Source: Pristiophorus japonicus | Taxonomy: Eukaryota | DNA: 64,000 bases | Reading direction: 5' to 3' | NCBI RefSeq assembly: GCF_044704955.1 | Contig: NC_091980.1 | Coordinates: 11,160,001 to 11,224,000 of the forward strand | Shown here: positions 3,392 through 61,398 of the stretch, one piece after another | How the letters are laid out: the number at the start of each line of letters is the position of its first letter | Position numbering within the stretch: the stretch's first letter is position 1 | Made by a program: the position numbers and the translations under genes | The notes under the pieces: model-generated | Database searches by the model: none | Told to the model about the DNA's origin: nothing | What the model saw: the letters and a program-made list of their open reading frames with translations, nothing else

Positions 3392-3489
3392 TAGAAACAT
3401 AGAAACATAGAAAATAGGTGCAGGAGCAGGCCATTCAGCCCTTCTAGCCTGCACCGCCATTCAATGAGTTCATGGCTGAACATGAAACT

Positions 3490-6275: not shown

Positions 6276-6436
6276 CCTTTGTCCTTTTAGAATTAAGATG
6301 TAGTGTGGCCCTTTTTGTTCTTTGCCTTGGGTTTCTCTGCCCTCCACTTTTCCTCATCTCCTTTATGTCTTTTGCTTTTGCCTCTTTTTTGTTTCCCTCT
6401 GTCTCCTGCATTGGTTCCCATCCCCCTGCCATATTA

Positions 6437-28459: not shown

Positions 28460-28600
28460 ATTGCACACCAATAAATCGCCCGTTCCTGGAAGGGTCCAGC
28501 TTTAAGAATTGCAATATTTAATTATTGACAGGAACTCGCTGTGTCACTGTCTACCAATAAGGAGCTCAGATGCAACAAGAGATCCATTGCCCCTCCCCAA
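28460..28600 (+). promoter_or_regulatory. Protocadherin promoter block 1 with variant CSE
   Basis: TTGCACAC..AGCTTTAAGAA..TTATTGACAGG..CTCGCTGTGTCACTGTCTACCAAT..GAGATCCATTGC; aligns with blocks 2-4. Confidence 0.85.
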
Positions 28601-28791
28601 CAGAGAAGGAGCAGACTGAAAGAGAACGATCGGTTGCATCCATTTAGATTGTGGAGTCACGTTCGGAGGGATCAAGGTCGATTTTCTGTGCATTCGGCAT
28701 TTAGATGTATGGAGCAACGCATTTTGTGATCAAGCCAGCTCTTGCGCTGAAACGATTTTGTAGATTTGCACAATAATCCGGCGAGGGTACA

Positions 28792-31176
28792 ATGGCGAAT
28801 TCACAGAGCAACAACGCCTTGATGCTGGCTGTTATTTTCCTGGCTTGTACATTGAACCTGGGTTTTGGAGAGATTCGCTATTCTATTCCTGAGGAATTGG
28901 AACGTGGTACTTTTGTGGGGAATGTCGCTGAAGATTTGGGACTAAACGTTCGACAACTATCAGCTCGGAAATGTCGTCTGGTTTCTGCTGACGGACGGCA
29001 GTATTTGGAGGTAAATTTGGAGACTGGCGTCTTATTTGTTAACGAAAGAATAGACAGAGAACTGCTTTGTGCACAAGCCCCAACATGTATCCTCGCTTTC
29101 CAAATAATAATAGAAAACCCTCTCGAAATGCACCGCGGGGAAGTGGAGATACTCGATGTAAATGATAATTCGCCCGGTTTCCCGGAGAGCGCGATTGTCT
29201 TGCAGATGGCCGAATCCATTGCAGCAGGCTCTCGCTTTCCGCTAGAGAGCGCGCTCGATCCAGACGTGGGGACAAATACAGTCACCGATTACAAGATCAG
29301 TCCTAATGAACACTTCGGTCTAAAAGTGCGAACCAGAGAGGATAGCACTAAAATTGCAGAGTTGCTGTTGGAGAAACCCTTGGACCGCGAACGGCAGGCG
29401 TCCTTTCAGCTTATACTGACGGCCCTCGACGGTGGGATACCGCACAGATCTGGGACGATTCAAATCAGTATTATTGTGTTGGACATCAATGATAACGCGC
29501 CTGTATTCGAGCATGAAGTATACAGGGCCAGCCTGATGGAAAACGCACCCCTAGGTACATTGGTGATGAGAGTCAACGCTGTGGATCGAGACCAAGGCAC
29601 GAATGCTGAGCTAAAATATTCTTTCACCAATCTTGTCTCTCAGAGAGCGCGTGAATTGTTCATTTTGGATCCGGAAACTGGAGAGGTCAGAGTTCAAGAA
29701 CTGCTGGATTTTGAAGAAGCAAACAATTATGAACTTGATGTTCAAGCTGTGGATAATGGTTCACCAGCAATTGCAGGACATTCCAAAGTGCTGATCAAAC
29801 TAATTGATATGAATGATAACGCCCCCGAGATAACGTTGACCTCGTTGTCGAGCAAGGTCTCCGAGAATGCTGCGCCCGGGACAGTAATAGCTTTGATCGA
29901 TGTAATGGATCGCGATTCTGGAGCGAACGGACAAGTTCACTGTCAGATCCCTACCGAAATGCCTCTTAAACTTCAGTCCATTTTGAAAGGCCATTATAAA
30001 TTGATTACCAGTGGTGTGTTGGATCGTGAAACCGCCCCTCTGTATAATATACCTGTCTTAGCCAGGGATTCGGGGTCTCCTCCACTATCAACAAATAAAA
30101 CCATCCAGATTTTGGTTTCTGATGTAAATGATAACGCCCCAAGGTTTTCCCGACCCGTCTACACCGTGTATGTGATGGAGAACAACGCTCCAGGAGCTTC
30201 TATTTCCGTAGTGACTGCGTTCGATCCTGATCTGGACCAGAATTCCTATGTTTCTTATTCTTTAAAAGGGAATCTACAAAACTCTCCAGTGTCCACCTAC
30301 CTCAATGTTAATTCCATGAATGGGACCATTTACGCGCTGCGCTCTTTTGACTACGAGCATCTCAAAACCTTCCAGGTCCAAGTTCAAGCCCGAGACGCTG
30401 GAGTGCCACCACTGAGCAGCAGCGCTACAGTGAATGTGATTATCCTGGATCAAAATGACAATGCTCCCCTAATTGTTTCACCTTCAGCACGGAGCGGATC
30501 AGCAGCAGGGGAGGTCGTGCCCCAGTCAGCGGATCAGGGGTACTTGGTCACCAAGATAATCGCAACTGACGCAGATTCTGGTCAGAACGCAAGGCTTTCC
30601 TACCAGATACTTCAAGCAACCGACCCCACTCTCTTCGCCGTAGCGCGCCATTCGGGTCAAATCAGAACAATGCGAAGCATTTCGGAGCAGGATGAGACCA
30701 CGCAACGTCTAGTCGTCGTGGTGAGGGACAACGGACAGCCGAGCCTCTCGAGCACGGTTACAATCTTCCTATTAATCTTGGCCAATGTTACGGAAAAAAT
30801 CTCTGAAACTAGTAATTTAGTCAGTAATCCTGGATATTCCTCCGATCTAAATCTTTACTTAATCGTCGCATTCGGCTCAACTTCGTTTATATTTCTTGTA
30901 ACCATCGTTTTGTTGGTTGGCGTGAAGTGCCATCAGGACAGAAACATTATTCAAGGTCACTGGGCCCCAGTTTGCTGTTGCCGGCCGATGAATTCGAAGG
31001 ACATCTTTACTCGGGCACCTGCACCAACAGACCCTTTAAATTATACTGGAACTGCTCAGAATATCCCCTTCCCCGAGTCTTATCATTACTCGGTTTGTTT
31101 GTCTCCCGAATCATCGAAGAGCGAATTTCTGTTCCTGAAGCCCTACAATCCACCCGCGCCTCAAGGGCAATGCTGA
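28792..31176 (+). CDS. Clustered-type protocadherin 1 (794 aa; signal peptide, EC1-6, TM, short tail; apparently single exon)
   Basis: Intact ORF; ACAATGG start context; DxNDN/LDRE/DxD cadherin motifs; EC1 C-X5-C; TM LYLIVAFGSTSFIFLVTIVLLVGV; tail YSVCLSPESSKSEFLFLKP. Confidence 0.95.
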   Translation: MANSQSNNALMLAVIFLACTLNLGFGEIRYSIPEELERGTFVGNVAEDLGLNVRQLSARKCRLVSADGRQYLEVNLETGVLFVNERIDRELLCAQAPTCILAFQIIIENPLEMHRGEVEILDVNDNSPGFPESAIVLQMAESIAAGSRFPLESALDPDVGTNTVTDYKISPNEHFGLKVRTREDSTKIAELLLEKPLDRERQASFQLILTALDGGIPHRSGTIQISIIVLDINDNAPVFEHEVYRASLMENAPLGTLVMRVNAVDRDQGTNAELKYSFTNLVSQRARELFILDPETGEVRVQELLDFEEANNYELDVQAVDNGSPAIAGHSKVLIKLIDMNDNAPEITLTSLSSKVSENAAPGTVIALIDVMDRDSGANGQVHCQIPTEMPLKLQSILKGHYKLITSGVLDRETAPLYNIPVLARDSGSPPLSTNKTIQILVSDVNDNAPRFSRPVYTVYVMENNAPGASISVVTAFDPDLDQNSYVSYSLKGNLQNSPVSTYLNVNSMNGTIYALRSFDYEHLKTFQVQVQARDAGVPPLSSSATVNVIILDQNDNAPLIVSPSARSGSAAGEVVPQSADQGYLVTKIIATDADSGQNARLSYQILQATDPTLFAVARHSGQIRTMRSISEQDETTQRLVVVVRDNGQPSLSSTVTIFLLILANVTEKISETSNLVSNPGYSSDLNLYLIVAFGSTSFIFLVTIVLLVGVKCHQDRNIIQGHWAPVCCCRPMNSKDIFTRAPAPTDPLNYTGTAQNIPFPESYHYSVCLSPESSKSEFLFLKPYNPPAPQGQC
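29239..29252 (+). promoter_or_regulatory. Candidate exonic CTCF site (eCBS position), gene 1
   Basis: CCGCTAGAGAGCGC encoding (F)PLESA; identical at 36437 and 42804. Confidence 0.4.
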
Positions 31177-31359
31177 GTTACAAACATGTGGTAAATTCGA
31201 GGGCAATCGTTTCGTCCTCTTGATAAAATGTTCTGATTTACTTAAGTTCGGCTGGAAGTACTACATTTTATTTCCCTTCAACCAACTCTATCGCTTTACA
31301 GAAGAAGGTTAATGCTGTAATGGGGCGGGTAACGTTTTAAAGAAAATAACATGGCACCC

Positions 31360-31365
31360 AATAAA
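31360..31365 (+). terminator. Candidate poly(A) signal, gene 1
   Basis: AATAAA 184 nt after the stop; gene 2 has the same spacing. Confidence 0.5.
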
Positions 31366-31814
31366 ACGGTCTAGTTACATGGCAAATATCGGTGCCTTTG
31401 AATTGCAATGTGGAGCCGGTAGACCAGAGAAATACCGCTCACTGTAAATCGGTCCAATTAGTAGTTAGCTCGCCAAAGCATTGCTCTGAATATGTTTGCT
31501 GGGCACGAGACCAGAGCTCTCATTCCGAGCCACTAATTTTTAGTTAGAAAATGATTGGCGAAATGTCCTTCTCTCTTGATATTAAAAATATTCCATAGAA
31601 AGTTATTTTAAGTTACAGGCAGTTCAATGGACTTATACTGGCCCCTTTGTATCAAAGGGATGCCTAAATGTTTAGTTGGAACACTAACGTAGAAGTAGAA
31701 ATGGAGGCAAAGATACATTGTAAACTACTCCGAGCAGAAGACCGTTAATATGGTATTGATAGCGATTCATAGTCTCGGATCTGTAATTCCTTTCACCTCA
31801 GTTGTTTCTTCGAG

Positions 31815-34620
31815 TTACATCGAGTCTACAACACAGAAACAGGCCATTCGGCCCAACTTGTATATGCTAGTGTTTATGCTCCACACGAGCTTCCTCCCAC
31901 CGCTCCTCATTTCACCCGATAACCATATCCTTCAATTGCTTTCTCCTTCATATGGTTATCCAGCTTCCCCTTAAGTACAGCTTCCACATTCTTACCATTT
32001 TTGTGCAAACAAGTTTCTCCTTAATTCCTATTTGGATTTATTCGTGACTATCTTATATTGATGACCTCTAGTTTTCGACACCCCAACGGTGGAATCTTTC
32101 TCTGAAACCCTTTCAATATCAGGTCACCTCTCAGCCTGCTTTTTTTTTAAAGGAATAGAACCCCAGACGGTTCAACCTTTCCTGATGAGTGTATCCTCTC
32201 AAACAAGAATACAATACTGTGGATGCTGGAAATCTAAAATAAACTCCTGCTGAATATTTCCAGCATTTCTCTTTTTATTTCAGTTGATCCTCCAGTTTTG
32301 ATGAATCTTCATGAATCTGTTGTGCACCTTCTCCAGTGCCTCTACACCCTTGTTATAAGAAAGTAACCAGAACTGTGCACAGTACTCACACAAATATAGA
32401 AACTGAAAATAGGTGCAGGAGTAGACCATTCGGCCCTTCGAGCCTGCACCATCATTCAATATGATCATGGCTGATCATGTAACTTCAGTACCCCATTCCT
32501 GCTTTCTCTCCATACCCCTTGATCCCTTTAACATGCTCCATATTCTTACCATTTTTATGTAAACAAGTTTCTCCTGAATTCCCATTTTGATTTATTCGTG
32601 ACTATCTTATATTGATGACCTCTACTTTTCGACACCCCAATGGTGGAAACTTTTTCTCTAAAACACTTTCATTATCAGGTCACCTCCCAGCCTGTTTTTT
32701 TTTTAGGGAAAAGAGCCCCAGACGGTTCAACCTTTCCTGATGAGTGTATCCTATACAAGAACAAAATACTGTGGATGCTGGAAATCTAAAATACTCCTTA
32801 CTCACCAAGGTTCTATACAAGTTGAACATCACATCTATGCTTTTCCATTTTTTCACCGTAGAAATAAACCCCAGTGCTTGCTTTGCATTTTATGGCCTTA
32901 TTAACCTGCGAAGCTACTTTTAGTGATTTATCTATCTATACCACTCGATAACTTTATTACTCTACCCCATTCAAACTCTTATAATTTAAGCAGTATGTGA
33001 CCTCATTATTCTTCCCAGCAAAATGACCATCTCACACGTGTCACGTGTCTGTATTGAAACTCATTTGCCAATTGCACCCCCATTCTGCAAGTTTATTAAT
33101 GCCTTCCTGTATTTTGTCGCATTCTTCCTTTGTTTTAACTACACATCCCACATTTTCTCATTTTAAACTTTGAAATTGTACTTCCGATTTCTGAGTCCAG
33201 GTCATTGATATAAATTCTGAACAGTGCTCCCAGCACCGATCCCTGTGGAACATTAGTTCCCATCTTTTGCAGTCTGAGTAGCTGCCCTCATCCCCTACTC
33301 TCTGTTTTATGTTTTCTAGCGACATTGCTGTCCATTCTGCTACCTGCCCCCTGACTCTACATAAGCCGACCTTAGTCACGAGTGTACTATGCAGTACCTA
33401 TCGAAGGCCTTTTGAAAATCCAAATATATTGCATCTTCTACATTAACCGTTTCTACTCTTTCAGTTACTTCTTCAATTAATTCGGTAAGGTTGGTCCAGC
33501 ACGAACTTCCCCTTTGAAATCAGTGCTGACTACTCTTTATTATATTTTTGGTTTCTAGGTATATTTCTATTATATTTTTGCTTAAACATTCCATTATCTT
33601 TTCTATTGCTGACGTTAGCCTTACTGGTCTTTAGTTCCGTGGACTTGTTCTCAGTCCTTTTTTAGATAAAGGACTAACTTTAGCTGTCCGCCAGTCTTCT
33701 GGTACTATTCCCTTTTCTAATATGTGTAATATTACCTTTGCTATCTCTTCCCTAACTACTTGTATTATGCACAGATGCAATCTATTGGGACAAGAGCTTT
33801 TATCCTCTTTAATTTTGATTAGTTTATCAGTTATCTTCCCCTTTCTATTTTAAATGTCTTTACATATTTTTTGATTTCTTCTAATATCATGCCCCCTTGA
33901 AGTCTCCCTCGTAAATACTGAGGCAAAGTAACTATTAAATATTTCTGCCATTTCATTGTCATTACCTGTGAGTTTATCTTATACATCCGTTAGTTTCCCT
34001 ATCCATATCCTGACTTTTCTTTTGTTAATTATATGTCCGTCGAATACCTCACTATTTATTTTTATATTCCTCGGTAATTACATTTTGTAGTTCCTTTCCA
34101 CTTCTATTATTTTTTTGGCATTTGTTCCTAAACTCTCCATATTCCCATTTGTCATCCTCTCCTTCATTGTCTATGTACTTACCATAACTCATTTGCTTTA
34201 GTTTCAATTTTAGCCTTATCTATTTATTCAGCCATGGTATTTCATTATTGGCTATTAGGTTTTTGTGTGTCTTTGTCTTACTTAGGTCTTTTTCAATCAA
34301 TATTTTAACCTTATTATATTATAATCGCTATACCCTAGATGTTCCCATGTGCTTACTTTTCTTGTCTGTTCTGGTTCATTTTCCATTACTAGATCCGGTA
34401 ATAATTTCTCTCTAGTTGGGATTCCTAATACGGAGTAAGGAGAGTCCCGAACACAATGTGAAAACTACATTTCCTTTTCTGCTTTACATACTTATTCTTG
34501 CAAGTTTATTTGGGAATAGTTGAAATCTCCCATTATTATTATTCAATCCAATTTAATAATTTCATAGATTTGCCAACACATTTCCTCCTCCACTTCCCTT
34601 CCACTTTTAGGTGATCAATT
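31815..34620 (-). mobile_element. Old degraded CR1 with nested short insertions
   Basis: Tail-side GAAACAGGCCATTCGGCCC at about 31836; GATTTTCAAAAGGCCTTCGAT (DFQKAFD) at about 33400-33420 on the minus strand; young CR1 3' piece at 32394-32530. Confidence 0.75.
31982..32800. repeat. About 260-bp local direct duplication (31982-32250 and 32536-32800)
   Basis: Both copies carry GATTTATTCGTGACTATCTTATATTGATGACCTCTA..CCCCAGACGGTTCAACCTTTCCTGATGAGTGTATCCT..AATACTGTGGATGCTGGAAATCTAAAATA. Confidence 0.85.
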
Positions 34621-35619
34621 GCTATTAGTTAATTTTTTATACATCACCTAGTCTACTTTAAGCCCCATTTGTCGTTATGAAACTGGTTTAATATTATAAA
34701 GTGCATGCACATTGGAATTTCTGAAATTCATTAATAATGCTGCATTGTAGGGAGGAGTTGCATTGACACTTTTTACAACTACTTCCATTTTGTACCAATG
34801 CTCAAGTGAAAGCATAACTCCAAACTTGATAGCCAATGCTACGATATAGTTTCCAGGCTGGCAATTTCTTTTGCATACTGCTTGTCTGCTGTCTGATTCT
34901 GCTTGGAATTCTCGTGGTCTGTGGAGAGCTCTGTGGATACACACATGTGTGCAAGTGCACAGCTCCACTAAATGTTTTAGGATCACAGATATGATCATCC
35001 ACGTTGGCAATACATGCGAAAATATCATGGATGAGCTGTAAGATTCCATTGGAACCGCTCAACACTTTTCAATCGAGGTTTGGCACTGCATTGTACTCTA
35101 TATGGAGGCAAACACAAGCGGTGTGACACGATACCACTCAAGGAGCTCCCTCACATTTTTCCCTCCACTCGACACCACACTAATATGAAAATCAATATAA
35201 AATGGAAACTAAATTATACCTCCATAAATCATAGTGATTCTCCAAATACGTACTTTTACTAGTGCGAGGACTAGAAATATGATAACATGTTTTGAAATAC
35301 TGCTTCTGTTGCGTAGGAGTTGAGTAAGGATGCTTATCTTTATACAGAAATAAATCAATAGTTGGGTTGTAGGAAGAGTAGTTGAGGGCAAGGCACTAGA
35401 CACAGTTAAGAAGTTAACTGCTTCCACGCAGAGAAACTTGATATCCAGAACGAGGAGACCAAGTAGGCATTTTTTTAATATAGATTTGGCTTCTGATCTA
35501 GTGGATAGGGACACAGAAAATCTTAACCCAACTCACATTTCGAAGCATTGGCGACGACCTTGAAGAGAAATGTTACAAAATCAATTGAGCAGCGGCGTCT
35601 ATAATTGCCTTGGTATTAT

Positions 35620-35775
35620 GGTTGCACACCATAAAAACGCTCATTGCGACCGCCAGTATTCCGGGAACAGCCCAGCTTTAAGAAGGTTGCGTGTCATTAT
35701 TGACAGGGGCTCGCTGTGTCGCTGTCCACCAATAAGAATCACAAATGCAGCCAGAGATCCATTGCTCCTCCCCCA
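35620..35775 (+). promoter_or_regulatory. Protocadherin promoter block 2 with CSE
   Basis: CTCGCTGTGTCGCTGTCCACCAAT; CGCT core at 35720-35723, 261 bp before the ATG. Confidence 0.9.
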
Positions 35776-35980
35776 TCACGGAACGAGAGCAGAATCAGAG
35801 AGAAAGAGAATCAGTGCTTGCGATTAGGTTATGCGACCAACTGGTGAAGCGCAGAGGGCAATACTTTGCAAAGTCCACAGTTCGAGGTATTGGGAGAAAT
35901 ATTGGAAATACTGGCTCGTGAAATTCACCCGACTACTACCTTACATTTGTGCCTCTGCGAAATAATCCAATCCGGTAACA

Positions 35981-38374
35981 ATGGCGTCTTCACAGAGCAA
36001 CAGCGCCTTACAATTCATGGTGCTGGTTTTCATTTTCCTGAATTGTGCATTTGATGTGGTTTCCGGACAGATTCGCTACTCGGTCCCCGAAGAACGGGAG
36101 CAGGGCGCTGAAATTGGTAATATCGCTGAAGATTTGGGACTGAACCTTCGCAAATTGTTAGCAGGGAAAGGTCGGCTGGTCTCTGACTACAAAATGCGGT
36201 ATTTGGAGATAAATGTGGAAAACGGGATTTTATTTGTCAATGAGAGGATAGACAGAGACCAGCTTTGTGGATCAATCACTACTTGTGTTCTTTCTTTCCA
36301 AATAGTGATTGAAAATTCTCCAGAAATGTACCGGGGTGAAGTGGAGATTCTCGATATAAATGATAATTCACCCAGTTTCCCTGAAAGCACCATTCTCTTG
36401 CAGATGGCGGAGTCCATTGCACCAGGCGCCCGCTTTCCGCTAGAGAGCGCGCTCGATCCAGACGTGGGGACAAACACAGTCACCGGTTACAAGATCAGCC
36501 CTAATGAATACTTCGGTCTGAAAGCGCAGACTGCAGAGGACGGCACTAAAACGGCCGAGTTGCTGTTGGAGAAACCCTTGGACCGCGAACGGCAGTCTTC
36601 CTTTCAGCTGATACTGACCGCCACTGATGGAGGGGATCCTCAAAGATCTGGGGCAACTCGGATTGTCATTACTGTGCTGGACAGCAACGATAACGCGCCT
36701 GCATTCGATCACGAGGTCTACAAAGTAAGTCTGGTGGAAAACTCACCCAGGGGTACGCCGGTGATTAAAGTCCATGCCTCTGACCCAGACGAAGGTCCGA
36801 ATGCTGAGGTAACATATTCCTTCAGTAACCGCGCTTCACAAAAAGTGCAAGAATTGTTCAGTCTCGATCCGCGAACAGGAGAGATTAGAGTTCAAGGAAT
36901 GCTCGATTTTGAAGAAGCAAGCAGTTATTCAATTGATGTTCAAGCTGCGGACAGTGGTTCACCAGTAATTGCAGGACATTCCAAGGTCCTGATCAAGGTA
37001 ATTGATGTGAATGATAACGCACCTGAGATAAAGGTGACCTTGGTATCTAGCAAGGTCCCCGAAGATGCTGCGCGCGGGACAGTGATAGTCTTGATCAACG
37101 TAATCGATCGCGATTCTGGAGAGAACGGACAAGTTAACTGCCAGATTCCCCAGGATGTTCCCTTTAAGCTGCAAACATCTTTGAGTAACCATTATAAATT
37201 GATTACAAGCGCCTTGTTGGATCGTGAAACCGTCGCTCTGTATAACATACCTATCGTAGCCTGGGACTCGGGGTCTCCTCCACTATCAACAAATAAAACC
37301 ATCCAGATTTCGGTGTCTGATGTGAATGATAACACCCCAAGGTTTTCCCGACCCTCGTATACCGTGTATGTGATGGAGAACAATACTCCGGGTGCTTCAA
37401 TTTTTGCAGCGACTGCATTCGATCCTGATCTGGAGCAGAATTCCTATGTTTCTTATTCTTTCAAAGGGAATCTTCAAAACTCTCCAGTGTCCACCTACCT
37501 CAATGTTAATTCCATGAACGGGACCATTTACGCGCTGCGCTCCTTTGACTACGAGCATCTCAAAAACTTCCAGGTCCAAGTTCAAGCCCGAGACGCTGGA
37601 GTGCCACCACTGAGCAGCAGCGCCACAGTGAATGTGATAATCCTGGATCAAAATGACAACGCTCCCTTAATTGTTTCCCCTTCAGCACGGAGCGGATCAG
37701 CAGCAGGGGAGGTCGTGCCCCAGTCAGCGGGTCAAGCGTACTTGGTCACCAAGATAATCGCAACTGATGCAGATTCTGGTCAGAATGCACGGCTCTCCTA
37801 CCAAGTGCTGAAAGCAACTGATCCCAGTCTGTTCAATGTTGGACTGAACTCTGGAGAAATCAGAACAGCCCGAGGTATTTTGGAGCAAGATGCCACCAAA
37901 CAAACTCTGGTGATCTTGGTGAAGGATAATGGGCAGCCGAGCCTCTCAAGCACGGTTACAATCCTCTTTTCAATTTTGGATAATGTTACTGATAGTTTCT
38001 CTGAAAGTAGCAACTTGATGAGAAATCCTGGATATGTCTCTGATGTAAATCTCTATTTAATCGTCATTTTAGGTTCAACTTCCTGTATCTTTCTTTTAAC
38101 CATCATTTTGCTGATTGGCATCAAGTGTAAACAGGACACTAACATCTCCGAAGAATATAACTCCCCAACTTGTTGCCACAGACTGGGAGATTCTAGCGAT
38201 GCGTTTAATCGAGGATCTGCACTGAAGGAATCTTTAACCTATACTGGGGCTGGTGAGATTGTTCGCATGCCTGACGCATACCATTACTCGGTTTGTCTGT
38301 CTCCAGAATCAGCGAAAAGCGATTTTCTGTTTTTGAAGCCCTGCACACCACCCATGTCTCTAGCCCAATGTTAA
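35981..38374 (+). CDS. Clustered-type protocadherin 2 (797 aa)
   Basis: Intact ORF with the same architecture; ends DFLFLKPCTPPMSLAQC*. Confidence 0.95.
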   Translation: MASSQSNSALQFMVLVFIFLNCAFDVVSGQIRYSVPEEREQGAEIGNIAEDLGLNLRKLLAGKGRLVSDYKMRYLEINVENGILFVNERIDRDQLCGSITTCVLSFQIVIENSPEMYRGEVEILDINDNSPSFPESTILLQMAESIAPGARFPLESALDPDVGTNTVTGYKISPNEYFGLKAQTAEDGTKTAELLLEKPLDRERQSSFQLILTATDGGDPQRSGATRIVITVLDSNDNAPAFDHEVYKVSLVENSPRGTPVIKVHASDPDEGPNAEVTYSFSNRASQKVQELFSLDPRTGEIRVQGMLDFEEASSYSIDVQAADSGSPVIAGHSKVLIKVIDVNDNAPEIKVTLVSSKVPEDAARGTVIVLINVIDRDSGENGQVNCQIPQDVPFKLQTSLSNHYKLITSALLDRETVALYNIPIVAWDSGSPPLSTNKTIQISVSDVNDNTPRFSRPSYTVYVMENNTPGASIFAATAFDPDLEQNSYVSYSFKGNLQNSPVSTYLNVNSMNGTIYALRSFDYEHLKNFQVQVQARDAGVPPLSSSATVNVIILDQNDNAPLIVSPSARSGSAAGEVVPQSAGQAYLVTKIIATDADSGQNARLSYQVLKATDPSLFNVGLNSGEIRTARGILEQDATKQTLVILVKDNGQPSLSSTVTILFSILDNVTDSFSESSNLMRNPGYVSDVNLYLIVILGSTSCIFLLTIILLIGIKCKQDTNISEEYNSPTCCHRLGDSSDAFNRGSALKESLTYTGAGEIVRMPDAYHYSVCLSPESAKSDFLFLKPCTPPMSLAQC

Positions 38375-38557
38375 CTTACAAAGATTTGGTAACATCAAGG
38401 CAGGAAGATGTTGCTTGCAACCTTTTGCTATCTATTTACGTGTAGCAGTTCGGGTTGAAGTACCGAAAATTCGTTCCGTTTAAGGATTTTTTTTGGCAGC
38501 AGGAGATGGTTCTTGTAATATAACTGTCAGTGTTGTTAATCAAAGGAAATATTGCAA

Positions 38558-38563
38558 AATAAA
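38558..38563 (+). terminator. Candidate poly(A) signal, gene 2
   Basis: AATAAA 184 nt after the stop. Confidence 0.5.
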
Positions 38564-39489
38564 AGGCTCCATGATACCACAGCAACATGGCTGATACTGG
38601 CATCTGTTCACTGTGAAGGGAAGCCGGCAGACAAGTCATTCTACGAACTACACAATTCAGTTTGTTGTAAGGCCAGTTGCACAAAGGACAAGGGGCATGG
38701 GTACCTGAACGCATGGGCAGAATTCCGCTTTAAAGTCTCTTTTTTTAATGGCAACACAAGTTGCCGGAGGCCCCTGTTCCCCCGTACCACTGAAAAGGAT
38801 TTTGAGTGAAGTTTTAAAAGTTCATAGATTGTCCAACGGAGTCTTATCGCGATTTCCGCATTGATGCGCACCTGATATTGCTTAGCAAAGACACGAAGTT
38901 GACAGTATAACTGCTGCCAAAATATTAAATATTAGTAACATAAAGTATAAAATAGTAGTATAATAAAGTATAACATATTTGGGGAGCAGGACAATTGGTA
39001 TATAACAACGTTAATATGTAAGGGATGAGAAAAGGGTATTTGGCCTTCATAGATCACCCATTTATTACTCCAAATTAACACTGGTTCGTGCAGTGATAGA
39101 TTACACAGAATTATACAATTTACATAGAAAGCACAACACAGACACAGGCCCTGTCTGTGTTTATGCTCCACAATACCCAACTCCCACCTCTCGTCATCTA
39201 ACCACATCAGCATAATATTTTATAAATATTATTCGGAAACGGTTGATTTGGCACTGACGCTAAACTGATTGTAAATCGGGGGTTAAGACAGAAGGCCAGC
39301 AAAGACTCAATGAGATTTATCGCTTCCAAAATAATTTCAAAAAAGCCGCGATTTTCTGCCCATTAAAATGAGTTGGACCAAAACCACGCCGGCTGGCGCA
39401 GAAGCAGAAAACCTACGGTCCAAATGTTATTCAGGGTCTTTACAATTCACTGGTCAGGACACACTAGTCAACATTTACTGTTTGCGTTA

Positions 39490-39583
39490 AAAAGAAAACA
39501 TACTGGAACTGCTCAGCAGACCAGGCAATATCTGTGGAGAGAGCAACATCAGTTCGATGACCGATGACCTTTTGTCAGAATTG
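39490..39583 (-). mobile_element. Degenerate copy of the short hammerhead-type element
   Basis: Reverse complement aligns to 53096-53190; TTCTGACAAAAGGTCATCG retained, GAAA box lost. Confidence 0.6.
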
Positions 39584-40771
39584 TTTGGGACCATATTTGG
39601 CATGTTCGTGTGACCTTTAGCTGGTTGTTACTTTATTGGCGGTGTTAACACATTGATATTAGGTAGGGCGGTGTCTCCGTTTGAGGAGTCAACAGATGAA
39701 CATTGTGCGAGGGTTTTGCTCATTTACGATTGGTGCTGGAGGGGTGGGCTCTAGACTTGAAGTATGGAAAGTACGAAGTTGGTAAGGTATCCGTGCAGAC
39801 GCTTCAGGTCCACAGTGCAGAAAGAATGTAGTTGTAGGAGAAATCAAAATGTACAATGGTACAGATTAAACAGAGGGTGACTTTAAATTAAGCCTGCAAA
39901 GTAATAGCAGGGGACATATATTTGAATTAGTGTGAAACTGTTTTAAGGTTTTTAGTAGAAAGGACTTTAGCCAACCAACGTGAAGCATGGATGTGAAGCG
40001 GGTTTGATTCTCCCAGAGGCTCAGTGCAGCCTGATATCCCATTGGGGATCTCACCTCCAATTTCATGGTACATTTACTTAATAACTATAGTAGCGGCGTG
40101 CAATACTTTCAAACCAATGCTAATGTTCGTTGATGAATAAATACTTCCTAATGTCGCTTTAAAATCACTTCATATTAATTTGCAGCTCTGTTCAGGTTTA
40201 ATTTCCGTTGCATATTTTGTTTTTCTCTAAAACCACATTTTGTTCTAGGGATGAAACTTCAGTCACCTTATGTCATAGCTCATTCCATTGATATTATGTT
40301 GCTCTTTGCGCCTTCATTAATGGTTGTATATGTTCCTCGTGGCTTGTGATCAGCCATAAACACAACCAGAATCTAGAAATTCAATTTGTAGCACCAATCC
40401 ATAAATCTATACTCATACCACATTCCTCTGTAACAATCACATGGAGGGACCGACCTACCTAAAATAATTTGGTTAAGATTACAATCAAAGTAACCAGCAG
40501 GGAAATGCCACAAAACGTGCCAATTATTCGTACACCAACATAGGAAATGACATTTATTTTAGGATCGAATGTGTTCTGACCAGTACATTGTAAAGTTAGA
40601 ACATTGGTTTATTTGCTTACCTTAGCATTCTTTTTACTTTTATTAAGAAAAGTATTTTGTAAGTATATGCGTGCGTTTCCATATCTGACCAGCATGGACA
40701 TAATGAGATTTATGTTCTCATTTTTATTTTTACATATCAGGTGTCATTATAGCCTTTTAGTCACACAAGTC

Positions 40772-41411
40772 CACACGTCAAATCCGTTGAAGTGCAGCTG
40801 AACGCTACTATGAGAATTATCACCGGTATGCTTTTAGGGACACCAACACATTGGCTGCCCGTGTTTGAAAACATCACACCTATGCCGTGGATATGTAGTC
40901 ACCAGAGAATACAACTGTTCCACCAGCAAAGATATGATGATCCAGGCCAACCTGATCAACGTACCACAAACCCCTTTCAAATCTAGAAGGCCATTTTGGA
41001 CCATCACTGACGAACTTAAGCCATCCCCCCTCAGTCTTGATGACTGCTGGCGAAATGTTTGGATGAACTGCGACATACCAAATGGATTCCATGTAAAGGA
41101 TCCCACAGTACAACCTGAATGAATGAACAAACGTTCCTCGCAAACAGTGGACAACTATCAATCACCTCTGAACCAGTCATGGTAGTTGCTGCCAGCTTCT
41201 CCATAGATGGGAGATTAAAGCACCCCCATCATGTAAATGAGGAGCTCCTAATCAGACCTTGGAGTACAACAACGAACAATGCCCTCAGAGGAAATCCGCA
41301 GGCAGCTTACAAGATATCCACGCTGTTATACTGAAAGCTTTGGACTGGATATCTGCATTAGATATTGATACTTAATTTGCTTTTTTGCGACTACAATACG
41401 AAAGACGAAGC
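40772..41411 (+). mobile_element. Vingi/Ingi-like LINE 3' fragment
   Basis: VEVQLNATMRIITGMLLGTPTHWLPV resembles the Ingi/Vingi ORF C-terminal region; ends ATACGAAAGACGAAG; degenerate TSD AGTCACACAAGTC (40759) / AGTTATACAATTC (41412). Confidence 0.6.
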
Positions 41412-42002
41412 AGTTATACAATTCACCTCCTATTTATAACCGAAAGCCTTGGCTAAAGCTATAAGCCAAGTCAACTTAGAGTATCTATAATTCGCTCACA
41501 CAAGTGTGTCATAGAGCAAATGCTTGTTTGCAGAATCAGTGATTTCACAAGACAGAAGATAACTGGTCTACTATTCTTGAAAGAAGCTTAAAATATTCTG
41601 ATCAAAATAATTAAGGTTGCATTCAAAAGTAATGTTCGATTTCAGTCTCTGGGGAAGGAATACTGAAAGACTTTCACAACGAATGTTCTTTCCGGTAGCA
41701 GTTGAAAAATCGGTCATAATTTGAAAATAATTAAGTTAAGACAGTCATTAATAAATTATATTTAAAGGTACAGAACTTCTTCCTTCCCAAACTAAGACGA
41801 TCACCCAGTGATACGTGAAAAAAAGTATGCTATCGAGGTGATAAAAAATGAAATGGTTTCGTCACATATTTTATACAAGAGAAACGGATGGAAAGTCTCA
41901 ACATTATAACATAAATTGCCCTTTAAATGATTAATGACGACCTTTAGGCGAAAGATTGTGAAAGGAAATTGACCTTCGCTTATGCCAATATGTGCGTATT
42001 AT

Positions 42003-42162
42003 AGTTGCACACTATTAAAAGGCTCATTGTGGTCGATGGCCCTCACATCAGGAAAAATGCAGCTTTAAGAATAACTGATGCAGTTATTGACAGGGACTCG
42101 TCGTGTCGCTGTGCACCAATGAGGATCCGAAATACAAGGAGAGATCTATTGCTCCTCCTCCA
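42003..42162 (+). promoter_or_regulatory. Protocadherin promoter block 3 with CSE
   Basis: GTGTCGCTGTGCACCAAT; CGCT at 42107-42110, 241 bp before ATG 42348. Confidence 0.9.
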
Positions 42163-42347
42163 GCATAAAACGAGAACGGAAAAAGGTCAATCGTTGTCTG
42201 CGTTCAGTTTGCGGAGACAACTGTATCAATTCTTTCCGCATTTGGATGTATCGGTCGATATATTTTGTGATTGGGAAGCTCTTGACCTGAATAGACTGCG
42301 GGTTGAATTCTGTGGGTCTCCGAAAATATCCCGGTCCGTTAGTAAAA

Positions 42348-44729
42348 ATGGCGAATTCATTGAGAACCAACGCCTTGAAATTCAAGCTGTTGGATATAAT
42401 TTTCCTGCTTTCCGCGTCGAATCTGGTTTTCGGACAAATTCACTATTCTATTCGCGAAGAAATGGATCCTGGCACTTTTGTTGGCAATGTCGCCGAAGAT
42501 TTGGGCTTGAACATTCGGAAATTGTCAGCTCGAAAATTCCGACTGACCTCTGCTGACAGAAGGAAGTGTTTGGAGGTGGATTTAGAAAAAGGGATTTTAG
42601 TTGCTAATGAAAGGATAGATAGAGAACAGCTCTGCGGACAGATGCCTGCTTGTGTCCTTTCTATTGAAATTGTAATAGAAGAGCCTCTGGAGATGTACCG
42701 CGGTGAAGTGGAGATTATCGATATAAACGATAATTCTCCCAGGTTCCCGGAGAGCTCCATTCTCTTGCAGATGGCTGAGTCCATTGCAGCAGGTGCCCGC
42801 TTTCCGCTAGAGAGCGCGCTTGATCCAGACGTGGGGACAAACACAGTCACCGATTACAAGATCAGCCCTAATGAACACTTCGGTCTGAAAGTGCAGACTG
42901 CAGAGGACGGCACTAAAACTGCTGAGTTGCTGTTGGAGAAACCCTTGGACCGCGAACGGCAGTCTTCCTTTCAGCTGGTGCTGACGGCCACTGATGGAGG
43001 AGATCCTCAAAGATCTGGGACAGCTCGGATTGTCATTACTGTACTGGACAGCAACGATAACGCGCCTGCATTCGAACACGAGGTCTACAAGGTCAGTCTG
43101 ATAGAAAACTCACCCAAGGGTACGCCGGTGGTTACAGTGCATGCCTCTGACCCAGACGAAGGTCCGAATGCTGAGGTAACATATTTTTTCGGTAACCGTG
43201 CTTCACAAAAAGTGCAAGATTTGTTCAGTTTGGATCCGCGAACAGGAGAGATTAGAGTTGAAGGATTGCTCGATTTTGAAGAAGCAAGCAGTTATTCACT
43301 TGATGTTCATGCTGCGGACAGTGGTTCACCAGTAATTGCAGGACATTCCAAGGTCCTGATCAAGGTAATTGATGTGAATGATAACGCCCCAGAGATATTA
43401 TTGACGTCCGTGACCAGCAGGGTACCTGAAAATACTGTTCCCGGCACTGTGACAGCTTTGATCAATGTAATCGATCGGGATTCTGGAGAAAACGGTCAGG
43501 TGCAATGCCAGATCCCTAAGAACATCCCTTTTAAACTTCAAACACTTTCGAATAACCATTATAAATTGATTACCAGTGGCCTGTTGGATCGTGAAACGGT
43601 TCCAAAGTATAACATACCTGTTTTAGCCTGGGACTCAGGGTCTCCTCCACGATCAACAAATAAAACCATCCAGATTTCGGTTTCTGATGTGAATGATAAC
43701 GCCCCAAGGTTTTCCCGACCCTCGTACACCGTGTATGTGATGGAGAACAACGCTCCGGGTGCTTCTATTTTCAGGGTGACTGCGTTCGATGCTGATCTGG
43801 ACCAGAATTCCTATGTTTCTTATTCTTTCAAAGGTAATCTTCAAAACCCTCCAGTGTCCACATACCTCGATATTAATTCCATGAATGGGACCATTTACGC
43901 GCTGCGCTCTATTGACTATGAACATCTCAAAAACTTTCAGATCCAAGTTCAAGCCCGAGACGCTGGAGTCCCACCACTAAGCAGCAGCGCTACAGTGAAT
44001 GTGATAATCCTGGATCAAAATGACAACGCTCCCTTAATTGTTTCGCCTTCAGCACGGAGCGGATCAGCAGCAGCGGGGATCGTGCCCCAGTCAGCAGGTC
44101 AGGGGTACTTGGTCACCAAGATAATCGCAAGTGACGCAGATTCTGGCCAGAACGCACGGCTCTCCTACCAAGTGCTGAAAGCAACTGATCCCAGTTTGTT
44201 CACGGTTGGACGGAGCTCTGGCGAAATCAGAACAATCCGAGGCATTGTGGAGCAAGATGCCACAACGCAAACTCTGGTGATCTTGGTGAAGGACAATGGA
44301 CAGCCAAGTCTCTCCAGCACTGTTACAATTCTCTTTTCAATCTCAGCCAATGTTACTGAAAGCTTCTCTGAAAGTAGTAACTTGGTCAGAACTCTTGAGA
44401 CTGTCTCTGATCTAAATCTTTATTTAATCATCGCTTTGGGGTCAACCTCCATTATATTTCTTGCAATCATCATTTTCCTGATTGGCATCAAGTGTAAACA
44501 GGATGGAAACATCACTGAAGGCTACAACTCCCCAATATGTTGCTACAGACTAGAAGATTCGAATGATGTCTTTACTCGGAATTCGGTGCCTAAAGATTCT
44601 TCCAATTATTGTGGTCAAACTGTCCCCGATACGTCACGTTACATGGTCTGTCTGTCACCAGAATCATCCAAGAGCGATTTTTTATTTCTAAAGCCTTGCA
44701 ATCCAGCCCTGTCTCAGGAGCAGCGCTAA
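42348..44729 (+). CDS. Clustered-type protocadherin 3 (793 aa)
   Basis: Start placed at AAAATGG (MANS), homologous to the paralogue starts, rather than the TTG at 42303; ends DFLFLKPCNPALSQEQR*. Confidence 0.93.
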   Translation: MANSLRTNALKFKLLDIIFLLSASNLVFGQIHYSIREEMDPGTFVGNVAEDLGLNIRKLSARKFRLTSADRRKCLEVDLEKGILVANERIDREQLCGQMPACVLSIEIVIEEPLEMYRGEVEIIDINDNSPRFPESSILLQMAESIAAGARFPLESALDPDVGTNTVTDYKISPNEHFGLKVQTAEDGTKTAELLLEKPLDRERQSSFQLVLTATDGGDPQRSGTARIVITVLDSNDNAPAFEHEVYKVSLIENSPKGTPVVTVHASDPDEGPNAEVTYFFGNRASQKVQDLFSLDPRTGEIRVEGLLDFEEASSYSLDVHAADSGSPVIAGHSKVLIKVIDVNDNAPEILLTSVTSRVPENTVPGTVTALINVIDRDSGENGQVQCQIPKNIPFKLQTLSNNHYKLITSGLLDRETVPKYNIPVLAWDSGSPPRSTNKTIQISVSDVNDNAPRFSRPSYTVYVMENNAPGASIFRVTAFDADLDQNSYVSYSFKGNLQNPPVSTYLDINSMNGTIYALRSIDYEHLKNFQIQVQARDAGVPPLSSSATVNVIILDQNDNAPLIVSPSARSGSAAAGIVPQSAGQGYLVTKIIASDADSGQNARLSYQVLKATDPSLFTVGRSSGEIRTIRGIVEQDATTQTLVILVKDNGQPSLSSTVTILFSISANVTESFSESSNLVRTLETVSDLNLYLIIALGSTSIIFLAIIIFLIGIKCKQDGNITEGYNSPICCYRLEDSNDVFTRNSVPKDSSNYCGQTVPDTSRYMVCLSPESSKSDFLFLKPCNPALSQEQR

Positions 44730-45417
44730 TTTGTTTGAAATTGGCGAAAATGAGGAACAGAAGCTATTTGTAATAATATATGTTTTAAGATGAAGTGTAA
44801 TAATAGGTTTGTGTGCGCCTCAATCGCCTTTACCATGCCTGAAAAAAGTGCAAACTGCCAGTGTAACAAGTGGCAGCAAATGCAAAATTGCTATTCTCGT
44901 AGAGATCTGTTTCAATTTCCAGATATTGAAATTGAAATTAAACATTTTTTCGAATTTGATGTCACCTATTCTTGAAGCAGATAAAAAAACAACTAAAAAC
45001 ACTCCTCGCACAAGTAGGGTTCGGTACTAACGACTGTTAACGAAGGTATGAAACAGACACACTTCCAAAACACGTTTCCTTCTATCGTTGATCTTGGTTG
45101 CCATGGCGTGAAAACATGTTTAATTTTAGTCCCCATAATAATTAATTGTGCTTGACTTATGAAGACACTGTTTTTAGAGTCTGTGACTCTCTTTTATTAA
45201 TAATTCCCATGACCGAGATTCACGATGGCCTACACAATATGTTGGGTCACAGAAAAATTGAGGACATATTTTCGTTGCTTATTACGTTGAAGGAGAATCG
45301 ATGTGGAATCTCAACATTTTTGCCTAAATTACACTCTAAAGTGGTCTTAACGATTTTGAAAGAGAAATGCTGCAAGAGAATCTACACAGTGGAATTTTTT
45401 CAATTAGTACATTTTAT

Positions 45418-45555
45418 GGTTGTACACTATTAAACATCTACGAGAACAGTCTAGCTTTAAGAATTGCTGATGTAATTATTGAAGAGGACTGCTTGTGTCG
45501 CTGTGCACCAATGAGAAGCTCAAATGCAGCGATGGATCCATTGCGCCGCCCCCTT
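45418..45555 (+). promoter_or_regulatory. Protocadherin promoter block 4 with CSE
   Basis: GTGTCGCTGTGCACCAAT; CGCT at 45499-45502, 238 bp before ATG 45737. Confidence 0.9.
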
Positions 45556-45736
45556 CACAGACATAGATCGGAATGAACCAGAAAGGCGAGCAGTCCCTGC
45601 GTTTCGGTTGTGGAGGCAAGTTCAGAAGGATAGAGATCGCGTCTTTGTAGATTCGGCATTTAGACATATTGGGGCACGTATTTTGAGATTTAATCGACTA
45701 CAGGCCTGGTTTTGGAAAAGATTCAAGTCCGGAACA

Positions 45737-48133
45737 ATGGCGAGCTCGCAGAGCAGCAACGCCTCAGCATGCAAGACGTTCGCTTTTATTTTTCTGCTAT
45801 GCACGGCGCATCTGATTTGCGGACAACTTCGCTATTCTATTCCCGAGGAAATGGAGCAAGGCGCTTTTGTTGGGAATATCGCTGGAGATTTGGAATTGAA
45901 TGTACGGCAGTTGTCAGCTCGTAAATTTCGGCTAGCCTCTGACGACGGAAGGCAGTACATGAAGGTTAGTTTGGATAATGGGGTTTTATCTCTTCGTGAA
46001 AGAATCGACAGGGAGCATATTTGCGGACCATTATCTTCGTGTATTCTTCCTTTCGAAATACTAATAGAAAACCCTTTGGAGATGTATCGCGGTGAAGTGG
46101 AGATTTTGGATCTGAATGACAATTCCCCCAGCTTTGCGGACAGCATCATTTCCTTAGAGATGGCCGAATCAATTGCACCAGGGGTCCGCTTCCCTCTCGA
46201 CAGCGCGCAGGATCCGGACGTTGGAGCAAACACAGTGGCAGCTTACAGAATCAGTACAAACGCGCACTTCGGCCTAGCAATGCAGACATCGGAAGATGGT
46301 ATTAAAAGCGCCGAGTTATTGTTGGAGAAGCCTTTGGACCGCGAGCAGCAGTCGTCCTTTCAACTGGTGCTGACGGCGATTGATGGTGGGATCCCTCCCA
46401 GATCCGGCACAGCTCAGATACTCATCACCGTGCTGGACAGCAACGATAACCCGCCTGTATTCGATCAGGCGATTTACAGGAGCACCTTAACAGAAAACGC
46501 AGCCCTAGGTACCTTGGTGATCAAAGTCAGCGCCAATGATTTGGACGAAGGTCCGAATGCCGAGGTAACATATTCTTTCAGCAAACTTGCTTCGCCAAGA
46601 GTGCGTGAACTGTTCAGTTTGGACCAACACACCGGTGAAATTAGAGTTGAAACAACGCTAGATTTTGAAGATGCAACCAGTTATTCACTTGACGTACAAG
46701 CTGTGGACAACGGTTACCCAGTAATTGCAGGACATGCCAAGGTTCTGATCAAGGTAATTGATGTAAACGACAATGCCCCCGAGATAAAAGCGACATCAGT
46801 GTCGAGCATGGTTTCCGAAGATGTTTCGCCTGGAACTGTGATAACTTTGATCAATGTAATCGATCGTGATTCCGGAGTAAACGGAGAGGTTCACTGTCAG
46901 ATTCCAAAGAACCTCCCCTTTAAGCTTCAAAAATCTTCCAGTAACCGTTACAAATTGGTTACCACTGGATTGCTGGATCGTGAAAATGTCCCTATGTATC
47001 ACATACCCGTTTTAGCCAGGGATTCGGGGTCTCCAGCACTATCAACAAATAAAACCATTCAGATATCGGTTTCTGACGTAAATGATAACGCGCCACGATT
47101 TACCCAAATGTCGTATACCGTGTATGTGATGGAGAACAATGCTCCTGGTGCCTCTATTTTTGCTGTTGCTGCTTTGGATCCCGATACGGATCAGAATTCC
47201 CATGTTTCCTATGCCATGATGGCGAATCTGATCCAAGATCTGCCGACGTCTCATTACATCAATGTTAACTCCAAAAATGGGGAAATTTACGCGCTGCGCT
47301 CTTTTGACTACGAGCAACTGAAGACCTTTCAGATCCAAGTTCAAGCCCGAGACGCCGGAGTCCCCTCACTGAGCAGCAGCGCTACAGTGAATGTGATTAT
47401 CCTGGATCAAAATGACAACGTTCCCGTAATTGTTTCACCTCCAGGATCGAGCGGATCAGCAGCAGTGGAGATCGTGCCTCAGTCAGCGGGTCAGGGGTAC
47501 TTGGTCACCAAGATAATCGCAACTGACGCTGATTCTGGCCAGAACGCACGGCTCTCCTACCAAGTGCTGAAAGCAACTGATCCCAGTTTGTTCAATGTGG
47601 GGCTTAACTCTGGAGAAATCAGAACAGCCCGAGGCATTTTGGAGCAAGATGCCACCACACAAAGTCTGGTGATCCAGGTGAAGGATAATGGGCAGCCAAG
47701 CCTCTCCAGCACCGTTACAGCTCTCTTTTCAATTCTGGATAATGTTACTGAAATATTCTCTGAAAGTAGCAACTTGGTCAGAAATCCTGAATATGTCTCT
47801 GATCTAAATCTCTATTTAATTATCGCTTTGGGTTCGACGACCTTAATATTTCTTGTAACAATAATTTTCCTGGTTGCCATCAAGTGTACACAGGACAGAA
47901 ATCTTATTGAAGGCTACAACTCCCCAATATCTTGCTACAGACGGGAGGATTCCAATTATACCTATACCGGGAGACCTACGCCGACTGAACCTGTAAATTA
48001 TACTGGTGTTGGACAGATGGTTCCCGACGCTGAACCTTATCATTATACGGTTTGTTTATCCCCGGAATCATCCAAGACAGATTTTTTGTACTTGAAGCCC
48101 TATATTTCACCGTTGCCTCAAGAGCAATGTTAG
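45737..48133 (+). CDS. Clustered-type protocadherin 4 (798 aa)
   Basis: Start placed at ACAATGG (MASSQS), followed by the signal peptide; ends DFLYLKPYISPLPQEQC*. Confidence 0.93.
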   Translation: MASSQSSNASACKTFAFIFLLCTAHLICGQLRYSIPEEMEQGAFVGNIAGDLELNVRQLSARKFRLASDDGRQYMKVSLDNGVLSLRERIDREHICGPLSSCILPFEILIENPLEMYRGEVEILDLNDNSPSFADSIISLEMAESIAPGVRFPLDSAQDPDVGANTVAAYRISTNAHFGLAMQTSEDGIKSAELLLEKPLDREQQSSFQLVLTAIDGGIPPRSGTAQILITVLDSNDNPPVFDQAIYRSTLTENAALGTLVIKVSANDLDEGPNAEVTYSFSKLASPRVRELFSLDQHTGEIRVETTLDFEDATSYSLDVQAVDNGYPVIAGHAKVLIKVIDVNDNAPEIKATSVSSMVSEDVSPGTVITLINVIDRDSGVNGEVHCQIPKNLPFKLQKSSSNRYKLVTTGLLDRENVPMYHIPVLARDSGSPALSTNKTIQISVSDVNDNAPRFTQMSYTVYVMENNAPGASIFAVAALDPDTDQNSHVSYAMMANLIQDLPTSHYINVNSKNGEIYALRSFDYEQLKTFQIQVQARDAGVPSLSSSATVNVIILDQNDNVPVIVSPPGSSGSAAVEIVPQSAGQGYLVTKIIATDADSGQNARLSYQVLKATDPSLFNVGLNSGEIRTARGILEQDATTQSLVIQVKDNGQPSLSSTVTALFSILDNVTEIFSESSNLVRNPEYVSDLNLYLIIALGSTTLIFLVTIIFLVAIKCTQDRNLIEGYNSPISCYRREDSNYTYTGRPTPTEPVNYTGVGQMVPDAEPYHYTVCLSPESSKTDFLYLKPYISPLPQEQC

Positions 48134-48278
48134 GTACTGCCACTGTGATATTAAAATAGGCAGAATGACTTAGTTCTGGTTACATATACCGACTTACTGC
48201 TATAAGAACTGAGTTGGAATACAAAGTCTTGCTTTAATGTAAATTGTATGGATATCGATAAATAAGCACTCAATCACA

Positions 48279-48312
48279 AATAAATAATTAATTGAACGAA
48301 TGAATAAATAAA
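48279..48312 (+). terminator. Candidate poly(A) signals, gene 4
   Basis: AATAAA at 48279, 48303 and 48307, then a U/GU-rich tract at about 48338-48353. Confidence 0.5.
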
Positions 48313-60301: not shown

Positions 60302-61239
60302 ATGGCAGGAGAGCTCGGACACGTGATATGCTCCTCCTGTACCATGTGGGAACTCAGGGACACTTCCGGTGTCCCTGATGACTACGTGTGTGAGAAGTGT
60401 ATCCGCCTCGAGCTCCTGACGGTCCGCGTTGCGGAATTGGAGCTGAGGGTGGATTCACTCTGGAGCATCCACAATGCTGAGAATGACATATCACGTGTAG
60501 TGAGTTGGTCTTACCGCAGGAGAAGGGTCCACAGCCAGATAGGGAATGGAAGACCAGCAGGAAGAGCAGTGCAAGGACAGTAGTGCAGGGGTCCCCTGGG
60601 GTCATCCCCCTGCAAAACAGATACACCGCTTTGAGTACTGTTGGGGGGGATGACTCATCAGGGGAGGGCAGCAGCAGCCAAGTTCATGGCACCGTGGCTG
60701 GCTCTGCTGCACAGGAGGGCAGGAAAAAGAGTGGGAGCGCGATCGTGATAGGGGATTCAATGCTGAGGGGAATAGATAGGCGTTTCTGCGGCCGCAACCG
60801 AGACTCCAGGATGGTATGTTGCCTCCCTGGTGCAAGGGTCAAGGATGTCTCGGAGCGGGTGCAGGACATTCTGAAATGGGAGGGAGATCAGCCAGTTGTC
60901 GTGGTGCACATTGGTACCAACGACATAGGTAAAAAAAGGGATGAGGTCCTACGAAACGAATTTAAGGAGCTAGGAGCTAAATTAAAAAGTAGGACCTCAA
61001 AAGTAGTAATCTCGGGATTGCTACCAGTGCCACGTGCTAGTCAGAGTAGGAATCGCAGGATAGCGCAGATGAATACGTGGCTTGAGCAGTGGTGCAGCAG
61101 GGAGGGATTCAAATTCCTGGGGCATTGGTTCTGGGGGAGGTGGGACCAGTACAAACTGGACGGTCTGCACCTGGGCAGGACCGGAACCAATGTCCTAGGG
61201 GGAGTGTTTTCTAGTGCTGTTGGGGAGGAGTTAAACTAA
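60302..61239 (+). pseudogene. CR1 ORF1 (zinc-binding motif, coiled coil, SGNH esterase), frameshifted
   Basis: CSSC..CEKC, IGDS, GTND, DGLH; small deletion near 60488 shifts the frame. Confidence 0.88.
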
Positions 61240-61398
61240 TATGGCAGAGGGATGGGAACCAATGCAGGGAGACAGAGGGAGACAAAAAGGAGGCAAAAGC
61301 AAAAGACAGAAAGGAGATGAGTAAACGTTTCGGGCAGAGAAACCCAAGGCAAAGAACAAAAAGGGCCACTGTACAGCAAAATTCTAAAAGGACAAAGG

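Follow-up and report, generated by a model that had tools for sequence, protein, structure and literature searches.

Four genes lying in tandem in the 64-kb window, the whole stretch of DNA that was analysed, are here identified as protocadherin-epsilon genes of a shark, every one coding for a self-contained receptor; the probability of this reading is put at roughly 0.85. As a discovery this amounts to little, because the elephant-shark study had already placed constant-free protocadherins of cartilaginous fishes in GenBank under the name 'epsilon', and dozens of deposited shark and ray models resemble the window genes but bear automatic names that mislead. The feature itself is real, the four genes are probably unremarkable members of an established family and, by analogy, they would work like protocadherin-beta genes without being beta genes.

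Four self-contained genes

The window holds four intact ORFs of 793-798 aa, all on the + strand (Table 1), with the layout of clustered-protocadherin variable exons, in which one large frame encodes a signal peptide, six cadherin repeats, a membrane-spanning segment and a short variable tail, and such units follow one another in tandem. Each product matches one PF08266 domain, five PF00028 domains and the membrane-plus-tail family PF16492, and pairwise identity among the four is 69-79%. All four stops are aligned, exactly 11 residues past FL[FY]LK, and the last three residues before the stop are GQC, AQC, EQR and EQC in genes 1 to 4. The first-pass annotation, made from the sequence alone, had described four tandem ORFs sharing one aligned stop codon and had read them as self-contained shark clustered protocadherins of beta-like architecture; ORFs, domains, tail alignment and trees agree with it on both counts. 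The tabulated start codon of gene 4 aligns with those of genes 1-3. Its frame stays open for 71 codons 5' of this ATG (45524-45736), through promoter-homologous DNA, and if an upstream in-frame ATG is counted the ORF becomes 45524-48133, 869 aa. A 1-nt insertion behind 45548 in one contig of sequencing run X1, a run of unrecorded type that may be DNA, would break the extension, which is therefore probably unused.

Table 1. Features of the four-gene array, in window coordinates
Feature	Position	Strand	Remarks
Gene 1	28792..31176	+	Epsilon-type ORF, 794 aa: signal peptide, EC1-6, membrane span, short tail
Gene 2	35981..38374	+	Protocadherin-epsilon-type ORF, 797 aa
Gene 3	42348..44729	+	Protocadherin-epsilon-type ORF, 793 aa
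Gene 4	45737..48133	+	Protocadherin-epsilon-type ORF, 798 aa counted from aligned ATG
CSE-like motif, gene 1	28542..28558	+	250 nt before ATG; CACT replaces CGCT
CSE-like motif (CGCT box), gene 2	35717..35733	+	264 nt before ATG
CSE-like motif, gene 3	42104..42120	+	244 nt before ATG
CSE-like motif, gene 4	45496..45512	+	241 nt before ATG
Likely 3' UTR, gene 1	31177..31365	+	AATAAA at 31360 (+184)
Likely 3' UTR, gene 2	38375..38563	+	AATAAA at 38558 (+184); homologous to that of gene 1
Candidate poly(A) signal, gene 3	44937..44942	+	ATTAAA, +208 after stop
Candidate poly(A) signals, gene 4	48279..48312	+	AATAAA at 48279, 48303 and 48307 (+146/+170/+174)
Candidate gene-conversion tract, EC2-EC3 of genes 2 and 3	36350-37010 and 42720-43380 (approximate)		

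Apart from the four genes with their promoters, the window contains no other protocadherin piece (28 kb upstream, 16 kb downstream) and no neighbour gene, and a search of it against Rfam gave 0 matches at the gathering score. Sequence repeated within the window makes up 57% of both flanks, compared with 0-16% between the genes. Young non-LTR retrotransposon pieces, which we take to be of CR1 type, lie at 3444-7382 (-), 12450-13882 (+) and 60487-63900 (+), along with many fragments, and carry RVT_1, endonuclease and a GDSL-like ORF. A short high-copy repeat with very high summed X1 contig depth occupies 31785-33120, between genes 1 and 2, and includes an internal 268-nt duplication (31983-32248 and 32537-32798).

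Each gene is preceded, 241-264 nt before its ATG, by one copy of a 17-nt CSE-like pattern that matches four times in 64 kb against 0.19 matches expected; the pattern was derived from the gene 2 copy, which leaves three independent copies. Every copy is embedded in a longer conserved promoter block, and the CSE-type promoters proposed from the sequence alone are thereby upheld. Excerpts of PMC7811963 define the CSE by its CGCT box and place CTCF at the CSE in clustered protocadherins, and a CGCT element had been found previously in the elephant-shark cluster, according to an extract of PMC2926608. Five matches to an NRSE-like motif occur in the window, all with 3 mismatches and none in the promoters.

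At the other end, a poly(A) hexamer lies no more than 210 nt 3' of each stop, in the positions given by the first-pass annotation, and gene 4 has an extra ATTAAA at +17. Either hexamer is found by chance in 27-35% of 250-nt non-coding windows; for 4/4 genes p is about 0.005-0.016, or 0.02-0.04 if genes 1 and 2 are counted once, and the hexamer positions thus give modest support, at the level of sequence, to poly(A) ends of the genes' own. Blocks that had been noticed in both the gene 1 and the gene 2 UTR reflect true homology of the two 3' regions (z=8.6 against 300 shuffles), while the remaining five of the six gene pairs score between -0.5 and 2.6 on the same measure. Gene 2 is covered by X1 contigs at 35806-37816 and 37877-38568. 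X1 contigs cross the stops of gene 2 (by 194 nt) and gene 4 (by 159 nt) with no joint, an observation that is meaningful only if X1 is RNA; the stop of gene 1 is passed by just 25 nt and the end of gene 3 is not spanned. All X1 joints among those listed (15 of 25) begin at 31857-33842, outside the ORFs. Two X1 contigs end 5 and 8 nt past an AATAAA (38568 and 48292 respectively), although one contig run cannot prove ends. X1 cover is absent from several unique intergenic bins and from most of gene 3; no inference about expression is drawn from it.

Variable exons of this kind can be spliced to constant exons, and neither a shared donor nor a constant exon had been recognised in the first-pass annotation. 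Both observations hold. Scored with an untrained matrix of presumed donor weights, no GT donor is common to the aligned positions before the four stops. Within the ORFs, gene 2 has private donor-like sites at 38253 (strong, CTG/GTGAGA, 8.4) and 38045 (weaker, 5.3), gene 1 has one weak site at 30956 (4.8) and genes 3 and 4 have none scoring above 4. A donor-like TG/GTAA lies 15 nt past the stop in gene 1 (31191, GTG/GTAAAT, 6.6) and gene 2 (38389, 4.0) and is missing in genes 3 and 4; it falls within the homologous 3' regions of the two genes, corresponds to the TGGTAA block singled out in the first-pass annotation, and could be a relic of a former splice to constant exons or a chance match. 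Constant exons were sought in the window with queries of mu/nu/gamma type, which included no delta constant domain and no identified alpha one. Searches by tblastn with 18 constant tails and with four mu/nu/gamma queries reached best E values of 0.37 and 0.88, and HMMs of 106 mu/nu/gamma constant domains and of their first 20 residues had no match below E 1 among the 3136 six-frame segments; the positive controls were recovered in 4/4 cases at E below 2e-9. At the genomic level the four are thus constant-free single-ORF genes, as in beta and epsilon.

It is very improbable that the ORFs are instead variable exons joined by splicing to constant exons beyond the window, with stops that merely lie in read-through intron. 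The view downstream extends just 16 kb, gene 2 does possess a strong in-ORF site, genes 1 and 2 have the post-stop GT in common and in some fused automatic models the tail breaks off a few codons short. However, the position of the stop codon is kept across 18 species among the matches listed, which read-through would not preserve. Furthermore, the genes share no donor before the stop, a donor located after the stop cannot add protein, and none of the relatives found among the matches listed carries a constant domain of mu/nu/gamma type.

Kinship with elephant-shark epsilon

Relatives were sought with residues 560-794 of gene 1, admitting proteins of up to 1390 aa; of 429 matches the best 120 were examined. 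Among these best 120 of 429, nearly all are shark or ray models of about 790-800 aa, and the entries named by subcluster are C. milii epsilon 8, 9 and 14. A cluster look-up yielded C. milii epsilon 4, 6, 7 and 10-13 as well, bringing the named proteins to 10, and further searches brought C. milii mu6 and nu8, 9, 13, 15 and 17, all with constant domains. Compared over their full length, the window proteins share 57-62% of residues with all 10 epsilon proteins, as against 47-53% with mu6 and the five nu. All 10 named epsilon (4, 6-14) end 24-29 residues past FL[FY]LK without a constant domain. Among the matches listed, the mu/nu/gamma constant domain occurs in 0/116 relatives (120 minus the window's four), as against 86/113 matches of a nu-type search, a share inflated by the restriction of that search to proteins of at least 844 aa.

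A maximum-likelihood tree (56 rows, 637 columns, LG+G4) was built from ectodomains only, which keeps the tail from influencing the grouping. It unites the window genes and epsilon in one branch (100/100), apart from mu (98/97), nu (98/95) and the beta-type rows (100/99), with mu and nu the nearest other groups (100/99 with epsilon). Delta is not represented in the sample and alpha by one alpha-like row at most, the beta, gamma and elasmobranch mu/nu labels were assigned from tail motifs of automatic models, and unit 1 of P0050, not being a full unit, was dropped. Membership of mu or nu was rejected: the window genes stand apart from mu6 and nu8/13/17 and have no joined constant domain. In one skate model (P0173), a mu-type unit is fused with an epsilon unit of the long-tail kind. 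After a common repeat-rich constant part, the shark and ray nu-type models P0265 and P0350 have a different C-terminal end from P0314 and P0345, a hint of alternative last exons.

The first-pass annotation had proposed a novel constant-exon-free subcluster of cartilaginous fishes. This novelty is lost, because the phylogeny places the genes, at 100/100, with C. milii epsilon, a described group whose 10 named proteins are themselves constant-free. Yu et al. 2008 is cited for elephant-shark epsilon in extracts of PMC2764143 and PMC4978886, the latter of which restates four elephant-shark subclusters, and the constant-exon tree of the anole paper is limited to alpha, gamma, delta, mu and nu. This tree and the deposited proteins together suggest that Yu et al. 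2008 treats epsilon as constant-free.

The same architecture, a shared PF16492 and a tail motif resembling the beta-type EFKFLKP of marsupial models would also fit an orthology of the shark genes with the protocadherin-beta genes of tetrapods, which would push back the origin of beta, but such descent is extremely unlikely. Forcing the short-tail group, the branch that contains the window genes, together with three beta-type rows, so labelled here from a presumed beta tail motif, lowers the log-likelihood by 140.9 (AU test, p=0.00025), in keeping with the first-pass view that the genes are not beta by descent. Against solved structures, EC1-4 score 362 bits with beta6/beta8, below gammaC4 (449) and alpha4 (412). 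Since the genes are built like beta and group with epsilon, the constant-free state probably arose separately in the two. Protocadherin-10 heads the PDB search but was set aside, being a gene outside the clusters; the tandem array, the promoter motif and the tree all speak against such an identity.

A short-tail branch of sharks and rays

In a quick tree of 119 rows from the matches listed, the window genes fall in a short-tail branch of 82 rows (support 99), which the 56-row tree recovers at 100/100. It consists of the four window genes and 78 rows from 18 elasmobranch species, with no C. milii among the retrieved proteins. Among the matches listed, 77/78 of these relatives have tails of 7-17 residues past the motif and 55/78 stop at the codon used by the window genes, 34 of them ending on Cys. 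The 119-row tree gives gene 1 a lineage of 13 rows (sharks and rays), gene 2 one of 10 rows (sharks and two rays) and gene 3 one of 12 rows (sharks only), and gene 4 belongs with 7 shark rows that are sister to 40 ray/skate rows; genes 1 and 4 are placed beside shark, not ray, rows, which points to a shark as the most likely source of the DNA. The window genes are accordingly taken, from sequence, to represent four old lineages of the short-tail subgroup. Catsharks have several gene-2 and gene-3 copies, and the ray/skate and catshark expansions are hidden by automatic names such as 'protocadherin-10-like' and 'gamma-C5-like'.

How this branch joins epsilon bears on its name. The fork that links the window group to named epsilon has support of 82/85 in a free search; holding the 12 long-tail epsilon rows together is not rejected and gives a tree 6.5 log units better than the free-search one (p-AU 0.58), and on these sequences the short-tail group may be sister to named epsilon and not nested in it. 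Nine scanned C. milii models contain no close match to a window gene, the best stretches reaching 73% or less. In UniProt, epsilon14 is B0YN69 and mu6 is B0YN82; if these are numbered consecutively, up to 21 epsilon exist, and the comparison by name covers 10 of possibly 21, with 11 (1-3, 5, 15-21) outside it.

It is conceivable, though unlikely, that the four genes belong to a distinct constant-free subcluster without a name of its own, confined to sharks and rays, sister to epsilon and absent from or lost in chimaeras. The branch's own support and its want of C. milii rows among the matches listed, its short tails, the better score of a monophyletic long-tail epsilon, the scanned C. milii models and the isolation of the array within 28 kb upstream and 16 kb downstream all speak for it. 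Against it, tail motif and architecture are common to the window genes and epsilon, which form one 100/100 branch, about half of the possible epsilon complement is unseen by name, and whether a sister branch counts as a 'subcluster' is mainly a question of nomenclature. It is similarly doubtful that the window presents the complete four-gene ancestral set of such a sister subcluster, with the fourth lineage expanded in rays (40 rows); if it did, tail-less neuronal identity tags would, counting beta, have evolved at least twice in jawed vertebrates. A literature search, with most subscription papers outside its reach, found no paper on elasmobranch epsilon genes, and the short-tail elasmobranch subgroup is apparently undescribed. 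For the evolution of the cluster, the assignment of the four genes to epsilon favours the view that constant-free subclusters arose independently in cartilaginous fishes and in lobe-finned vertebrates, and the trees add four orthologous lineages, with expansions specific to rays and to catsharks.

Predicted function and comparison with known protocadherins

Mean identity among the four genes is 64% in EC1, 70% in EC3, 84% in EC5 and 82% in EC6. Genes 2 and 3 depart from one another unevenly, with protein identities of 92% in EC2 and 89% in EC3 against 62% in EC1, and fourfold sites differ at 13/99 positions in EC2-3 versus 30/57 in EC1+EC4 (p=2e-7, for a contrast picked after viewing 6 pairs by 7 regions). 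The pattern suggests gene conversion across EC2-3 between these two genes, in which case any difference in their binding specificity would rest mostly on EC1:EC4.

In mammalian clustered protocadherins, as set out in excerpts of PMC7811963, promoters are chosen via CTCF at the CSE, like isoforms pair in trans through EC1-EC4 and cis pairing through EC5-EC6 is promiscuous. By analogy, each window gene would likely be chosen through its own CTCF-bound promoter and transcribed as one unspliced message. The protein would then pair with identical isoforms on facing membranes through EC1-EC4 and with other isoforms on its own membrane through EC5-EC6, so that each isoform is predicted to give neurons an adhesive label of its own; on the mammalian model, from which the neuronal barcode role proposed in the first-pass annotation also derives, the four genes probably help to label nerve cells. 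If they behave like mammalian beta, the isoforms would widen the recognition code and, having no constant domain, would rely for constant-domain signalling on cis partners of the mu, nu and delta types.

Among known systems the closest is C. milii epsilon (GenBank ABV59322, ABV59324-ABV59332), whose deposited proteins are constant-free like the window genes, share with them 57-62% identity and a 100/100 branch, and carry the same tail motif, LSPESSK[ST][DE]FL[FY]LK. The two differ past this motif, where the window genes have 11 residues, usually ending Q-x-Q-C, and C. milii epsilon has 24-29. The mu and nu genes of cartilaginous fishes follow the same ectodomain plan, but at 47-53% identity they have other tail motifs and constant domains that start Q-x-N-x-D-W. 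Meanwhile, the beta genes of mammals, anole and coelacanth, as portrayed in parts of PMC7811963 and PMC2764143, are also tandem, single-exon genes with their own CSE promoters, short variable tails and no constant exons. Beta and the window genes are nevertheless separate lineages by the AU test, and the design common to both is likely convergent.
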